Shown here: positions 19,617-26,493 of the stretch, one piece after another
Layout of the letters: the number at the start of each line of letters is the position of its first letter
Position numbering within the stretch: position 1 is the first letter of the stretch
Origin: a phage
Direction: 5' to 3' (one strand)
DNA: 64,000 nt
Sequence record: NC_100327.1
The notes under the pieces: generated by a model
Database searches by the model: none
What the model saw: only the letters and a program-made list of their open reading frames with translations
Told to the model about the DNA's origin: nothing
Position numbers and translations under genes: made by a program

Positions 19617-19693
19617 TGGTCTCCACGGAGTGATTCGAACACTCGACCTCCTGATCCCAAATCAGGCGCTCTACCAAGCTGAGCTACGCGGAG
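19617..19693 (-). tRNA. tRNA-Pro (anticodon TGG)
   Basis: Hand-folded cloverleaf: 7-bp acceptor with C1-G72, D-arm, anticodon loop TTTGGGA, T-loop TTCGAAT, encoded CCA. Confidence 0.75.
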
Positions 19694-19703
19694 TATTTAT
19701 TAT

Positions 19704-19779
19704 TTGGTGGCCCTGGGTGGAATTGAACCACCGTCTGGCGATTATGAGTCGCTTGCTTGAACCTTCCAGCTACAGGGCC
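19704..19779 (-). tRNA. tRNA with CAT anticodon (Met, or Ile if lysidine-modified)
   Basis: Acceptor GGCCCTG/CAGGGCC, anticodon loop CTCATAA, T-arm GGTGG-TTCAATT-CCACC, CCA encoded. Confidence 0.75.
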
Positions 19780-19780
19780 A

Positions 19781-19856
19781 TGGTGCTGATGGCAGGACTT
19801 GAACCCGCAACCTATTGATTACAAATCAATTGCACTACCGATTGTGCTACATCAGC
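19781..19856 (-). tRNA. tRNA-Thr (anticodon TGT)
   Basis: Perfect acceptor GCTGATG/CATCAGC, anticodon loop TTTGTAA, T-loop TTCAAGT, CCA encoded. Confidence 0.8.
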
Positions 19857-19860
19857 AAAA

Positions 19861-19959
19861 AGGTGCTAGGTGATGGAATCGAACCACCTATGTATTCAAC
19901 GACTACCTCGTCTATTTTCAGGATTAAAAATCCTCGCCCTTGCCAAAGGGCTTACCTAG
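19861..19959 (-). tRNA. aberrant tRNA-like element with Lys (TTT) anticodon loop and ~25-nt insertion
   Basis: About 99 nt: perfect acceptor GCTAGGT/ACCTAGC, D-arm GCCC-TTTGGCAA-GGGC, anticodon loop TTTTTAA, T-arm GGTGG-TTCGATT-CCATC; extra hairpin GACGA-ggtag-TCGTT between anticodon and T arms; 3' end ACC not CCA. Confidence 0.4.
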
Positions 19960-20057
19960 CTCAGTATGTTGACCATGTTGCTAGTCGGCGATGACGACTG
20001 TAACATTTGATAATCCGGTTCTGCTTCCGACTTTCGCTTAATTACAAGGTCAACAAT

Positions 20058-20148
20058 GTGGCGGAGAGTAATGGAATCGAACCATCATCGAGTCATCCTC
20101 AACGGGACGGTTTTCAAGACCGCTTGAGCACCATTGCTCCCTACCCTC
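20058..20148 (-). tRNA. tRNA-Ser (anticodon TGA), type II
   Basis: Acceptor GGAGGGT/ACTCTCC with one G-U, anticodon loop CTTGAAA, long variable arm, T-loop TTCGATT, CCA encoded. Confidence 0.65.
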
Positions 20149-20263
20149 CTTTATAAATTATACTGATAATGACACTGATTTTCGAGCAGTTAGTGACTAG
20201 TATAAACGACGATAAATATCAATGCCATTATCTGTATTATTTATGCATCTAAAAATATAAATT

Positions 20264-20350
20264 TGGTGGGGAGTGGTGGAGTCGAACCACCCGAGTCGCA
20301 ATGACAATAGATTTACAGTCTACACCGCTACCTCTACGGGATAACTCCCC
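20264..20350 (-). tRNA. tRNA-Tyr (anticodon GTA), type II
   Basis: Acceptor GGGGAGT/ACTCCCC, anticodon loop CTGTAAA, long variable arm, T-arm GGTGG-TTCGACT-CCACC, CCA encoded. Confidence 0.75.
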
Positions 20351-20354
20351 AATT

Positions 20355-20429
20355 TGGCACCCCGTACTGGACTCGAACCAGTGTCAACGGCTTAGAAGGC
20401 CGCTGCTTTATCCACTAAGCTAACAGGGC
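20355..20429 (-). tRNA. tRNA-Arg (anticodon TCT)
   Basis: Acceptor with two G-U pairs, D-loop AGTGGATA, anticodon loop CTTCTAA, T-arm ACTGG-TTCGAGT-CCAGT, CCA encoded. Confidence 0.75.
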
Positions 20430-20525
20430 ACTGGGTGGCTTTCTTTTACACCTTAGCCGCCAGAAAAGGTGGGAGACCATGTTTACAATATTACACTGTT
20501 AAGCAAAGTTTGTCAAGAAAATATT

Positions 20526-23367: not shown

Positions 23368-23922
23368 TTACTCCCTGCTGTCAATATCAAAACTCATTGC
23401 AATACGGTATGCCTCTTCTAATGGTAAGAGTCTCCCCCACACATCCCAACCGACATCAAGCTGCCTGCCAAACAACTGTTGTGTGGTTCCGTGAGCATGA
23501 CCGAACAGTTGGACTGATCCGTGAGGCTTTCTGTTCCACTTTGCAAACTGGTAATGGCTCATACAGATCAAATTCTTGTTGTGGCGAAGCTCGTAATAAT
23601 CTACAACCTCATGACCGAACTCTTTCATAATTCTGACAGTCGTCCTTGTGTCATGGTTGCCACGAACAAGAATAATATGTCCGTTCAACATATTTAGAAT
23701 ATCTGGAAGTAAGTTGTTGATATTCTTATCATTAGTGCACGCAATATCTCCCAAGTGGAACACAGTGTCTGCAGGTGACACAACAGAGTTCCACTCGGCG
23801 ATGATTCCCGCATTCATACTGTCAAGATTGTGATCATACTGAGATCTGTGTTTTTGACATGAATCAAACTCCATGACCCGCTGGTGGAGAAAGTGTGTGT
23901 CGCTTGTTACAAAGTATTTCAT
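23368..23922 (-). CDS. calcineurin-like metallophosphoesterase
   Basis: ORF track 23368..24027; start moved to ATG (MKYFVTSDTHF) with GAGGAA RBS; motifs SDTH, HLGDI, GNHD. Confidence 0.7.
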   Translation of the reverse strand: MKYFVTSDTHFLHQRVMEFDSCQKHRSQYDHNLDSMNAGIIAEWNSVVSPADTVFHLGDIACTNDKNINNLLPDILNMLNGHIILVRGNHDTRTTVRIMKEFGHEVVDYYELRHNKNLICMSHYQFAKWNRKPHGSVQLFGHAHGTTQQLFGRQLDVGWDVWGRLLPLEEAYRIAMSFDIDSRE

Positions 23923-23929
23923 ACATTCC

Positions 23930-24340
23930 TCATTTAAGTTTAATGCAGTTTTTAAGCTGGCGTTCCATACGATCCACAACCTTGTCTGGAACATCATGAA
24001 TGCTTTTATTACCGTGGCGGTTTTCAACCACGATCACGGTATAACTATACCCATGACTGATTGCCATGTCAACATATTCCTGCACATGTTTTTCTTTTGT
24101 AAACGTATTACTTACCACGATACGGTCGTATCCCATACGCATCATATCTTCTACGTTATCTTTGCACCATTTTGCTGCGAGTGTTACTTTACTTGCATCC
24201 CAGTTGTAATTGCCGTCATCGTCATACCAGAACATGTCGTTCTCAAAATGTGGATACAGACCCTCTAAAGATAGCGCATTTGCCAGTGTTGATTTGCCAG
24301 ACCCTGGTAGACCACGCACGATATATAGCATTTTAGACAT
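23930..24340 (-). CDS. P-loop kinase (polynucleotide-kinase-like)
   Basis: ORF track 23930..24397; start at ATG (MSKMLYIVRG) with GGAGGG RBS; Walker A GLPGSGKST. Confidence 0.6.
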   Translation of the reverse strand: MSKMLYIVRGLPGSGKSTLANALSLEGLYPHFENDMFWYDDDGNYNWDASKVTLAAKWCKDNVEDMMRMGYDRIVVSNTFTKEKHVQEYVDMAISHGYSYTVIVVENRHGNKSIHDVPDKVVDRMERQLKNCIKLK

Positions 24341-24461
24341 AGTGACCCTCCGTTTTAATTTCAACGGTAGTATACCTAACTGTTTTGTTAATTTCAAGTG
24401 TTGACACTAGGTTATTTGTGTGGCAGGATAGACTGACAAAATGACAAATGAGGAACATATA

Positions 24462-25376
24462 ATGAAGTATTTTAATGCAGACGACCTAGTTGACAAAGGT
24501 CTTGTAACCAGTAGGTATTACCCAGATCTCGGGTTAAAGATCTATAAATATGCTAGAAAAGTATTTTACAACAATTTATGGCATTTGTCCCCTCGTTTAC
24601 TGGAGTGCCGAGGCATTGTTGTAGGTAATGAAGGAAATGTTGTGGCATGGCCCTTCACAAAAGTGTTTAACTTGGGAGAAAACTCCACCAACCTGCCTGA
24701 CAATAAGCTTGTGACTGCGGTAGAGAAAAAGAACGGATTCCTTGGTGTGGTATCATCTCATAAAGGTGACCTATTGTTCTCAACAACCGGGTCTCTTGAT
24801 TCTCCATATTGTAACCTTGCAAAGGAAACCATCCAAGAGCAATGTGGTAATTTAGATCTTATCAAGAAGGTTATGGGCAATGAAAACATGACATTCATGT
24901 TTGAAATTTGTCACCCTTCAGATCCGCATATTGTTCAAGAAGACCATGGCGCATATTTGATAGGTTGCAGATATAATGATTCTGGAATAATGCTACCAGA
25001 AGCCGCTTTAGATGGGATTGCCAAATACCTTGGTGCAAAACGTCCTCACACTGTGCGTGAAATTCCGTTCAGCTATGCAAAAGAGTTAGCTGCAGAAACA
25101 AGAGGTGAAGGATATATGATTCGTAAGCCTTACTACCCTTATGATCTGCAGTTGAAGATCAAGTCTCCATACTATCTGGCACGAAAGGCCGTAATGAGGG
25201 GTAAAGCTTGGAAGATTTGGGATGATGATATCTTTAAACGTGTTGACGAAGAGTTTTACGGCATGGTAAACTTCATTCGTAACAACTACACAGAGGATGT
25301 ATGGAACTGCCTCCTGGAGCAGGAACGCCGTGAGATACTTGACTGCTATTTCCACAACGAGGACTATATGCAATGA
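24462..25376 (+). CDS. RNA ligase-like nucleotidyltransferase
   Basis: ORF track 24441..25376; start at second ATG with GAGGAA RBS; ligase motifs EKKNGFLG (KxNG), EGYMIR, KIKSP. Confidence 0.6.
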   Translation: MKYFNADDLVDKGLVTSRYYPDLGLKIYKYARKVFYNNLWHLSPRLLECRGIVVGNEGNVVAWPFTKVFNLGENSTNLPDNKLVTAVEKKNGFLGVVSSHKGDLLFSTTGSLDSPYCNLAKETIQEQCGNLDLIKKVMGNENMTFMFEICHPSDPHIVQEDHGAYLIGCRYNDSGIMLPEAALDGIAKYLGAKRPHTVREIPFSYAKELAAETRGEGYMIRKPYYPYDLQLKIKSPYYLARKAVMRGKAWKIWDDDIFKRVDEEFYGMVNFIRNNYTEDVWNCLLEQERREILDCYFHNEDYMQ

Positions 25377-25731: not shown

Positions 25732-26493
25732 ATGCGACGACTGATTATTATCTCCGGTGCTGGTTTGAGCGCTGAATCTGGTATTCCCACTTTCCGATCT
25801 GGTAGCACTGCAATGTGGGAGAATTTCAGCATCGATGAGGTGTGCAACATCCACACCTTTGCCAAGAACTACTACAAGGTGCATGACTTTTACAATGCAC
25901 GTCGTGTAGCTCTAGGCGGTGTTGAGCCTAACCTTGCACATCTTCGGATCGCTGAGTGGTATTCCCGCTGGTCTGGTCGTGTGATCAACCTTACCACCAA
26001 TGTAGATGATTTGCTGGAGCGTGCGGGTGTAAAACATGAAGATATTTTACATGTTCACGGGTATTTGCCAGAAATAGTCTATGAGGACGACGAAGGAAGT
26101 AACGTCATTAAGGACATTGGATACTCTGAGGTAGATGCAGGAAAGTATACCTGGGTTAAGCCTAATGTGGTGTTCTTCGGAGAAGTAGCTCCGAAGTATA
26201 CAGACATGTATGACCTGTTGACTTCTCTTACGAGTAATGATATGGTTATCCTTGTAGGGTGTTCCAACACAGTTATCAATTTTAACTGGGAGCTATTCCC
26301 TGCCTGCAATAAGGGAACCAAACTGCTGATCGTTAACAAATACGACTCACAGCAGCTAGGGGAGAATGGTATTTCACGTAGTGATATTTACCAATATGAG
26401 GATCGCGGCATCCCAGTTTGGTTTAACGGGGCGGTTGATGCTTTCTCTGATAAAACATTCATTGAGACCGTAGAAAACTTTATGGAACTTTAA
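25732..26493 (+). CDS. Sir2-family NAD-dependent protein (deacylase/ADP-ribosyltransferase-like)
   Basis: 253 aa, ATG with GAGGA RBS; GAGLSAESGIPTFR, TTNVDDLLERAG, HVHG, NVVFFGE motifs. Confidence 0.8.
   Translation: MRRLIIISGAGLSAESGIPTFRSGSTAMWENFSIDEVCNIHTFAKNYYKVHDFYNARRVALGGVEPNLAHLRIAEWYSRWSGRVINLTTNVDDLLERAGVKHEDILHVHGYLPEIVYEDDEGSNVIKDIGYSEVDAGKYTWVKPNVVFFGEVAPKYTDMYDLLTSLTSNDMVILVGCSNTVINFNWELFPACNKGTKLLIVNKYDSQQLGENGISRSDIYQYEDRGIPVWFNGAVDAFSDKTFIETVENFMEL

Follow-up and report, generated by a model that had tools for sequence, protein, structure and literature searches.

Is a tRNA-like gene that can be drawn with the anticodon of lysine really a lysine tRNA, or is it something else that has kept the shape? 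The question is raised by an element in the tRNA cluster of the phage record NC_100327.1, of which a stretch of 64,000 nucleotides (nt), here called the window, was analysed. The phage is an rV5-like coliphage of the genus Vequintavirus, and its tRNA region of 851 base pairs (bp) is 99.2-99.5% identical to those of Murica, rV5, FFH2 and many others in BLAST. The original prediction, made from the letters of the DNA, placed an aberrant tRNA-Lys(UUU) at 19861-19959. The locus is right but one base off, and the strand, which had been left unstated, is minus: ARAGORN finds a tRNA-like gene of 99 nt at 19862-19960, between tRNA-Ser and tRNA-Thr. We argue that the element is probably a functional but non-decoding mimic, derived from a tRNA and belonging to a conserved family in the tRNA clusters of the Vequintavirinae. 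The family has not been described before, and it consists of tRNA-derived mimics with a distinctive architecture of five helices.

A tRNA-like gene with five helices

ARAGORN labels the element tRNA-??? and gives it a four-base anticodon, 'atcc'. The Rfam tRNA model RF00005 scores it 35.5 bits (E=1.8e-5, gathering score 29), with UUU in the anticodon position and an insertion of 26 nt in the variable region; the six neighbouring tRNAs score 60-76 bits. Following a line for the whole, the parts of the minus-strand RNA are given in order from its 5' end (hp, hairpin; J, junction).

19862..19960, minus strand: whole tRNA-like element, 97 nt through the discriminator A73 (19864), then CC (19863-19862); 119.9 bits with the family model R1
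19954..19960, minus strand: 5' strand of the acceptor stem, GCUAGGU, RNA positions 1-7, pairing with 19865-19871
19952-19953, minus strand: A8 A9, in place of U8, just upstream of the D arm
19936..19951, minus strand: D arm, GCCC-UUUGGCAA-GGGC, in whose GG the second base is G19, one half of the elbow pair
19920..19934, minus strand: hp1, the equivalent of the anticodon arm, AGGAU-UUUUA-AUCCU, flanked by G26 (19935) and G44 (19919) and including the heptamer UUUUUAA
19913..19919, minus strand: J1, single-stranded GAAAAUA
19898..19912, minus strand: hp2, the extra hairpin GACGA-GGUAG-UCGUU, a variable, swappable module
19889..19897, minus strand: J2, single-stranded GAAUACAUA, which contains AAUACAUA
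19872..19888, minus strand: T arm, GGUGG-UUCGAUU-CCAUC, with a canonical T loop in which C56 is the elbow partner of G19
19862..19871, minus strand: 3' strand of the acceptor stem, ACCUAGC (19865-19871), discriminator A (19864) and CC (19862-19863), then UUUUU and tRNA-Thr at 19856

The minimum free energy structure of the element in RNAfold is a cloverleaf with five helices (z=-4.09), and 0/200 shuffled sequences folded as well. The perfect acceptor stem of 7 bp (GCUAGGU/ACCUAGC) and the canonical T arm, with a stem of 5 bp and the 7-nt loop UUCGAUU that holds U54, U55, C56 and A58, are both as first described. So is the 3' end, which in the window copy is A73-CC-U with no encoded CCA, and so are the six canonical tRNAs around it, all of which encode CCA. 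The D arm had also been called canonical, and with regard to its stem of 4 bp and the GG in its loop this is correct, but A8 and U14 are the reverse of the near-universal U8 and A14, and this is the case in 30/30 homologues. The extra hairpin GACGA/GGUAG/UCGUU is present, but the region between hp1 and the T stem, thought to hold about 25 extra nt, is 30 nt long (7 nt, a hairpin of 15 nt and 9 nt, minus shared ends).

A family of phage homologues

BLAST finds the element in 128 phage records, with diverged copies in Avunavirus (Av-05, TH18) and Seunavirus (GE_vB_MG). A first covariance model of four copies was used on IMG/VR and metagenome contigs and recovered full-length members, and BLAST from those members extended the family. 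The later copies come from Henunavirus (Erwinia), from Mydovirus (Klebsiella, Raoultella, Enterobacter and Escherichia coli), from more Seunavirus phages (Salmonella, Cronobacter and E. coli 4MG) and from an uncultivated group E in the metagenomes. The alignment on which the following rests has 30 distinct sequences, from Vequinta-, Avuna-, Seuna-, Mydo- and Henunavirus (five genera of Vequintavirinae), from the uncultivated group and from one Schitoviridae phage. The last is Salmonella phage vB_SenP_UTK0002, an unrelated N4-like podovirus with a copy in its tRNA cluster (locus L096:1501-1605) that is 88% identical to the version of the Erwinia phages, and judging from the sequences this is a horizontal transfer between unrelated phage families. 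Between genera the identity over the element is only 72-78%.

At E<=1, BLAST of the element against 5,426 complete genomes of E. coli gave no match. Exact-pattern scans of one genome per species, covering 185,579 bacterial and archaeal species, gave 0 and 17 matches, of which the model confirmed 0/17. By these scans the element is specific to phages, and a host origin or mimicry was rejected, with no true match in either set. Homologues were also not found in a T5-like tRNA region or in the first 50 kilobases (kb) of Certrevirus phiTE, which is the part of that genome that was scanned.

The annotation of the element varies. Rfam 15 has no family for it, and in most other genera its copies are not reported as tRNA by Rfam at E<=0.1; ARAGORN makes no call for it in Av-05, TH18 and GE_vB_MG, and tRNAscan (Cove) missed it in the reference annotation of rV5. 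The labels across records are tRNA-OTHER, tRNA-Lys (in the records of the BASEL collection), tRNA-TERM, tRNA-sup (as tRNA-sup(tca) in Hena1 and pEp_SNUABM_01), tRNA-???(atcc), coding sequence or hypothetical protein, or there is no label. Full-text searches of the literature turned up neither a published description of the element nor any transcriptome for rV5-like phages.

Some of the records have peculiarities of their own. GE_vB_MG, which is an UNVERIFIED record, is one C short compared with PVP-SE1 both in the hp1 loop (CAUCA vs CAUCCA) and in the CCA end (U-CAAA vs U-CCAAA), and the element is present at two places in this record of 172 kb; these are probably errors of assembly or sequencing and not biology. 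Among the GenBank entries MG065642-MG065682, named 'Campylobacter phage', 18 records match the tRNA cluster of rV5-like coliphages at 99-100% identity, and a further one, at least, is T5-like. The host label Campylobacter jejuni is probably wrong, or else the sequences come from contaminating coliphages.

Covariation in every helix

In the alignment, 98.6% of the pair cells are standard pairs and 13/22 pairs change on both sides, in 103 cells. When the 3' partners were slid by 1-3 columns as a control, only 0-2 pairs had changes on both sides. The acceptor stem and the T arm are paired in 100% of their cells, and changes on both sides occur in 5/7 pairs of the acceptor stem, 3/4 of the D stem and 3/5 of the hp1 stem. 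The hairpin hp2 exists in four types of sequence and length, each with compensatory changes of its own, for example GACGA/UCGUU vs GACGG/CCGUU, CCUCC/GGAGG vs GCUCUC/GAGAGU and CAUUCAC/GUGAUG vs UAUGGUC/GACAUA, and from the hp2 of the window to that of Avunavirus an A-U becomes a G-C. The elbow pair covaries without exception: it is G19:C56 in 24/30 sequences (GG/UC) and U19:A56 in the other 6/30 (GU/UA; Mydovirus, GAP31, 4MG), and the family thus has the contact of D loop and T loop that is found in canonical tRNAs (G18 G19 vs U55 C56). A scan of mutual information for further tertiary contacts gave nothing new, the signal being dominated by phylogeny.

Compensatory changes in every helix and in the elbow pair argue that the arms are not a coincidence and that the element is not a decaying pseudogene. 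The first description of a genuine but structurally altered tRNA-like gene thus stands, with regard to both folding and covariation.

No conserved anticodon

The stem of hp1 has 5 bp in all members, with G26 and G44 flanking it, and the loop has only 5-6 nt. Eight loop sequences are found: AUCAA in 11 cases, CAUCCA in 7, UUUUA in 5, UUAUA in 3, and CAUCA, CCUCAA, CAGCCA and CCGCCA in 1 each. The Lys-like heptamer UUUUUAA is seen only in Vequintavirus, and only if the closing U-A pair is opened. If opened in the sister genus Avunavirus, the heptamer is UUUAUAA, which is Ile-like with the triplet UAU, and in Henunavirus and group E it is CAUCAAA, with the triplet UCA and an A at position 33, which explains why some records read 'tRNA-sup(tca)'. 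Seuna- and Mydovirus have a hexaloop, CAUCCA, that is closed by C-G and cannot present a triplet. U33 exists only in Vequinta- and Avunavirus (groups A and B). For the window copy RNAfold adds a sixth pair to hp1, which leaves a triloop of UUU. As a family the element lacks the 7-nt loop with U33, purine 37 and a conserved anticodon of a canonical tRNA, and its variable region is 30-39 nt, compared with the 4-5 nt of class I tRNAs or the abutting arm of class II tRNAs.

The canonical Lys (UUU) anticodon loop of the original prediction can indeed be drawn for the window copy, but only with a stem of 4 bp, a G.G mismatch and no residue 26, and the register shared by the family is a stem of 5 bp with a loop of 5 nt. 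The identity as tRNA-Lys(UUU) falls with the orthologues, since the heptamer is confined to Vequintavirus and the other loops are UUUAUAA, CAUCCA and CAUCAAA. Neither is there support for a nuclease-resistant replacement of tRNA-Lys, because such a tRNA would need a conserved, decodable anticodon loop, and the family has none.

Two other ways of reading the loop were rejected. The four-base anticodon 'atcc' of ARAGORN depends on an AUUUU/AAAAU pairing that only the window lineage can form, and it has no canonical loop positions. A suppressor tRNA, as in the labels 'tRNA-sup(tca)' and 'tRNA-TERM', would have A33 in its CAUCAAA loop and would need an open C.A closing pair (which is U-A in two copies), and it is missing from the other genera.

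Invariant junctions around an exchangeable hairpin

The most conserved parts of the variable region are unpaired. GAAAA of J1 is kept in 29/30 sequences (the exception is GUAAAA), and AAUACAUA of J2, just 5' of the T stem, is invariant in 30/30. Both are unchanged while the surrounding stems turn over, and they flank the swappable hp2, with 6-7 and 9 unpaired nt between this hairpin and the stems on either side. Altogether 16 unpaired bases of the variable region are invariant, and they have no relation to those of class II tRNAs. In Mydovirus a 5' half of the GAP31/4MG type is joined to an hp2 of the Henunavirus type, and hp2 appears from this to be a module that is exchanged between lineages. 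In the D arm, U14, U15, A20 and A21 are invariant (30/30), and U14-A21 and U15-A20 can extend the stem to 6 bp with the tetraloop UGGC. This longer stem is seen both in RNAfold and in the Rfam tRNA-Sec alignment, but as the two added pairs never vary they show no covariation.

Other candidates for contacts or functions in this region were tried and dropped. Kissing between the loops of hp1 and hp2 (UCCA/UGGA, which becomes GCCA/UGGC in 4MG) is suggestive, but it is restricted to the hp2 of the Seunavirus type, is not found in the window type and was not used. Pairing of J2 with the 5' flank of hp2 (AUGUA/UACAU, from the Rfam Sec alignment) is possible in only some type-3 copies. A hammerhead-like CUGA...GAA lacks the catalytic G8, and no Rfam ribozyme matched at E<=1. 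A coding role was rejected too, since the only open reading frames over the element are on the opposite strand, are 24-59 amino acids long, begin with TTG or GTG and run into tRNA-Thr.

The 3' end and the gene context

U73-CCA is encoded in Seuna-, Mydo- and Henunavirus, in group E and in the N4-like copy, and the exceptions, with no encoded CCA, are Vequintavirus (A-CC-U) and Avunavirus (U/C-ACA). The discriminator is U in 23, A in 5 and C in 2 of the 30 sequences, and the canonical tRNAs that neighbour the elements encode CCA in 160/166 cases. The element is always found within tRNA clusters. Its distance to a neighbouring tRNA is 5 nt in the window, where it lies upstream of tRNA-Thr, and 2-9 nt in the other genera. 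Co-transcription with these tRNAs and processing by RNase P are to be expected from this closeness, and together with the U73-CCA encoded in most genera it makes a maturation of the tRNA type plausible. The features of the wider locus are as follows.

20488..20516, minus strand: sigma-70-like promoter TTGACA-17-TAATAT upstream of tRNA-Arg, from a promoter scan (10/12 matches); 'P(tRNA)' of the rV5 RefSeq annotation
23368-24027, minus strand: metallophosphoesterase of the RNA-repair-like set
23930-24397, minus strand: AAA_33 P-loop kinase-like protein of the same set
24441-25376, plus strand: Rnl1-family RNA ligase of the same set
25732-26493, plus strand: Sir2-family protein that adjoins the set

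From its sequence, the promoter is the likely start of a polycistronic tRNA transcript that includes the element. The canonical tRNAs of the window called by ARAGORN lie at 19617-20429 on the minus strand and are Arg-UCU, Tyr-GUA, Ser-UGA, Thr-UGU, Met-CAU and Pro-UGG, with no other tRNA-Lys, and the cluster of six suggests a replacement set against nucleases that cleave tRNA. The RNA-repair-like genes that the original prediction mentioned do exist, 3.4-5.4 kb from the element, and encode the ligase, the kinase-like protein and the metallophosphoesterase of the list above; together with the Sir2-family gene they correspond to gp076-gp080 of the rV5 annotation. Their proximity had been regarded as a clue, but it carries little weight, since the linkage is limited to Vequintavirus. 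The gene of a 'tail fiber protein' and tRNA-Thr are what precedes the element in Avuna-, Seuna-, Mydo- and Henunavirus, and the N4-like phage has its copy in a bare cluster of tRNAs.

Two natural variants have lost the element. In V18 (L004:1451-1547) and O157 typing phage 4 (L005:1311-1532) recombination between tRNA-Tyr and the element has deleted tRNA-Tyr, tRNA-Ser and the element, with breakpoints inside the variable region in V18 and inside the shared GGUGGUUCGA T arm in typing phage 4. Both keep a chimera of the 5' part of tRNA-Tyr and the 3' part of the element, in which the acceptor strands are not complementary. The element is dispensable, and as these variants are viable any function that it has must be conditional. 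Typing phage 4 also has an additional insert of ~130 nt after tRNA-Arg.

At the 3' end two further candidates were rejected. An intrinsic terminator, found by a scan in the T arm and acceptor strand with the UUUUU that follows, is an alternative pairing of the tRNA arms and exists only in the window lineage, and we do not consider it the main function. Pairing of the 3' trailer with J1 and J2 is possible in Seuna- and Avunavirus, but not in Mydo-, Henuna- and Vequintavirus, and the trailer is the 5' strand of a second RNA.

The 'tail fiber protein' of 215 amino acids upstream of tRNA-Thr in Avuna-, Seuna-, Mydo- and Henunavirus (phrog_1491, no Pfam domain; L104:282-929 and homologues) has homologues with ~39% identity in T5-like phages, in one of which the tRNA region is ~3 kb away. 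Phages of Vibrio, Pseudomonas, Bacillus and Lactococcus have homologues too, for a total of 735 records, and the 'tail fiber' label looks doubtful.

Other structured RNAs in the clusters

The second RNA is structured and ~190 nt long, and in Seuna- and Avunavirus it lies directly downstream of the element (L097:1610-1802, L100:296-488, L104:1583-1775, L105:1540-1732 and L002:1600-1790). RNAalifold predicts 59 pairs in it, 18 of which have compensatory double changes. The fold is made up of a long terminal stem, a 'D stem' of the form UA-GCUC...GAGC, within which extra helices take up ~110 nt, and a hairpin whose pentaloop, GYGGA, is conserved. Several GGA motifs occur over the whole RNA, and no Rfam family matches it at E<=0.1. 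Mydo- and Henunavirus have a different stretch of ~190 nt in the same place, which is also complementary from end to end.

In the window, the spacer of 114 nt between tRNA-Tyr and tRNA-Ser (20150-20263, minus strand) forms a long imperfect hairpin (z=-4.45, 0/200 shuffles as stable), and the ~35 nt at its start are similar to the 5' end of the second RNA in Seunavirus. By this resemblance the spacer may be a remnant of the second RNA, or else another small RNA. The spacer between tRNA-Ser and the element (19961-20058) has no significant structure (z=-1.55).

How the element might work

We consider a functional mimic that does not decode to be the most rational explanation of the element. It would be transcribed together with the neighbouring tRNAs from the promoter of the cluster, and RNase P would cut at G1, as the half with acceptor stem and T arm is canonical. 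For the ACC-UUUUU of the window copy, trimming would leave ACC, from which the CCA-adding enzyme of the host would make a full CCA, a step that is modelled on the maturation of T4 tRNAs, and most genera encode U73-CCA directly. The RNA would then fold into a tRNA-like L shape, with the elbow G19:C56 intact, and would be stable because it is tRNA-like. The lower half would not be a decoder, having a blunt arm of 5 bp with a loop of free sequence and an enlarged variable region. We think that the RNA may act in trans, as a look-alike that binds a host (or phage) factor that reads the shape of tRNAs, with the invariant junction as the specific contact, and that the role could be counter-defence or regulation by titration, for instance of a tRNA-directed nuclease or toxin that is unable to cut the blunt anticodon arm. 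The element moved alone within a tRNA cluster to an unrelated phage, which makes a host factor common to the Enterobacterales a more likely partner than a phage protein. As phage tRNA clusters are increasingly seen as a counter to immunity that cleaves tRNA, a role as decoy or competitive inhibitor is ranked first, but it is a leading guess, and even if the element is a mimic this particular mechanism is possible rather than probable.

Several observations weigh against a mimic without decoding. The searchable literature has no data on expression, size, aminoacylation or binding for the element, and the phages that have lost it are viable. With its U33 and A37 the UUUUUAA of Vequintavirus matches a Lys loop exactly, and >95 genomes have it in identical form; in that lineage the element could still decode or have a role as a mimic of an anticodon loop. 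In Henunavirus and group E the loop is perhaps an open CAUCAAA of 7 nt (UCA), and opal suppression may take place there. The invariant junction strands, finally, could be purely architectural and form the core of a five-way junction instead of a recognition site.

Some known RNAs come close to the element in kind. T4 has two small, stable and partly tRNA-like RNAs, rnaC and rnaD (species 1 and 2 RNA), which are processed together with the tRNAs of the cluster. They are similar to the element in being encoded inside a phage tRNA cluster, but they are 119-139 nt long and do not have its cloverleaf of five helices, and when the family model R1 was run without filters on the T4 tRNA region it gave <=9.4 bits on rnaC and nothing on rnaD, so there is no homology. 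YrlA, a bacterial Y RNA, mimics the tRNA elbow and the acceptor/T half; it is tied to RNA-repair operons in some bacteria and is also present in phages. Unlike the element, it has a closed acceptor-like stem and its ends form the helix that binds Ro, and its model RF02553 has no match on the element, the only match in the window being one of 25 bits, against a threshold of 69, on tRNA-Met/Pro. ARAGORN calls no tmRNA in the window. The pseudo-tRNA tRNAOther of Bacillus cereus acts as a tRNA look-alike and not as an adaptor (PMC3399842), which makes it a precedent for a regulatory look-alike that does not translate, but by its description it is set apart from the element, being chromosomal, from a Gram-positive host, of ordinary tRNA size and without an extra module.

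Alternative explanations

The origin of the element was likely a Sec-like or class II tRNA, as far as the alignments can tell, and the alternative that survives best is that it still is an aminoacylated adaptor like tRNA-Sec or the allo-tRNAs, charged, by way of its long extra arm, by SerRS or another synthetase that does not depend on the anticodon. Allo-tRNAs occur in phage tRNA clusters, and a role as suppressors, as regulatory non-coding RNAs or as both has been discussed for them (Mukai et al., NAR 2017, PMC5389517), and irregular Sec-like tRNAs of such clusters can be suppressors (PMC5389517). The element shares with them the long extra arm, the absence of U8:A14 and a possible D arm of 6 bp with a 4-nt loop (UGGC, compared with UGGU in Sec), and the CAUCAAA of the Henunavirus type is one base from the Sec loop CUUCAAA. 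U73-CCA is present in most genera, the 7/5 branch of acceptor and T stem is compatible with EF-Tu, and the label in Hena1 and pEp_SNUABM_01 is that of an opal suppressor. The Rfam tRNA-Sec model RF01852 is the best-scoring family for several copies, with 27-39 bits (39.0 in Hena1, 29.4 in Av-05, 27.5 in Csp-D17), but every score is below the gathering score of 47, and the best clan match of the window copy is RF00005. The 7/5 branch is not the branch of 13 bp of tRNA-Sec (8/5 in bacteria), nor is it 8/4 or 9/3, the G73 of tRNA-Ser and tRNA-Sec is replaced by a discriminator U, A or C, and the anticodon UCA is restricted to Henunavirus and group E, where it comes with A33. The extra hairpin is unlike the arm that SerRS reads, as unpaired nt, 7 and 9 of them invariant, separate it from the stems, and the anticodon loop has 5-6 nt in most members. 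A charged adaptor of this kind is in our opinion unlikely. The same can be said of the uses that it might be put to, as a suppressor or recoder of low efficiency (of UGA, in the Henunavirus type) or as an aminoacyl donor off the ribosome, since the hexaloop is closed in those genera that have the most intact 3' ends and a loop of 7 nt comes with A33.

A working elongator tRNA-Lys(UUU) that decodes AAA and AAG with an enlarged variable arm, and that perhaps is a nuclease-resistant substitute, is what the window alone would suggest. The loop can be drawn with UUUUUAA, U33, UUU and A37, Rfam aligns it in this way, the BASEL records annotate it so, and the phage has no other tRNA-Lys while it carries a repair set of Rnl1, kinase and phosphoesterase. 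A phage tRNA-Lys is known to counter PARIS, according to the background given in PMC13015707. The replacement tRNAs (T5 tRNA-Lys against PARIS and T5 tRNA-Tyr against retron Eco7) and the T4 Pnkp/Rnl1 repair that acts against PrrC resemble the present case in the tRNA cluster of a virulent coliphage, in the repair genes nearby and, for the window copy, in the U-rich Lys-like loop. Those tRNAs are however canonical and decodable, with small changes in the anticodon loop, and the element family has no conserved anticodon and contains a module that is foreign to tRNAs. The triplets of the orthologues are UAU (Avunavirus), none (Seuna- and Mydovirus) and UCA with A33 (Henunavirus), thermodynamics favours the closed loop over the heptaloop, U8/A14 is reversed to A8/U14, and 16 invariant unpaired bases sit in a variable region of 30 nt. 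CCA is not encoded although the six neighbours encode it, and tRNAscan passed over the rV5 copy. We find a lysine tRNA improbable.

It could be thought that the element is only a processing signal in cis, a 'tRNA punctuation' for RNase P and the 3' enzymes with no function as a free RNA. It is always a few nt from another gene in a tRNA cluster, and in Seuna- and Avunavirus it directly precedes the RNA of ~190 nt, whose 5' end would be set by the 3' processing of the element. Any tRNA would however serve for this, and the 16 invariant unpaired nt, the elbow, the extra hairpin and the encoded CCA are left unexplained; the element is also retained in Vequintavirus directly before tRNA-Thr. This makes the punctuation idea very improbable. 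A decaying and functionless pseudogene with left-over arms is hardly credible at all, for even if the element is dispensable in V18 and typing phage 4, has a degenerate 3' end in Vequinta- and Avunavirus and is called inconsistently by gene finders, every helix and a tertiary pair have compensatory changes across genera that are 72-78% identical, the unpaired segments are invariant, and the element has been transferred to, and retained in, an unrelated phage family.

Implications

Phage tRNA clusters are now mostly read as sets of replacement tRNAs against anticodon nucleases, and the element shows that in at least one well-studied phage subfamily they also contain a tRNA-shaped RNA that is probably not an ordinary decoder, that has a conserved module foreign to tRNAs and that has spread horizontally. 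Annotation of the element as tRNA-Lys, opal suppressor, 'tRNA-OTHER' or coding sequence distorts tRNA counts, studies of codon usage and claims of stop-codon recoding. The carriers, rV5, PVP-SE1 and their relatives, are phages used in therapy and biocontrol, and with their natural deletion variants they offer a tractable model in E. coli for the role of tRNA-like stable RNAs in phage clusters, such as RNA C and D of T4.

A more far-reaching idea, for which we claim only a small chance, is that the element is a modular RNA effector on a scaffold derived from tRNA-Sec, serving as an RNA-based counter-defence that titrates or blocks tRNA-directed immune nucleases, toxins or another host factor that reads the shape of tRNAs. 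Its L-shaped body would then be the constant part, with an anticodon arm that is blunt and a junction that is A-rich and invariant, and the hairpin would be swapped to give specificity. If it is true, and with the second RNA of ~190 nt taken into account, phage tRNA clusters would also encode a hidden class of tRNA-mimic regulators.

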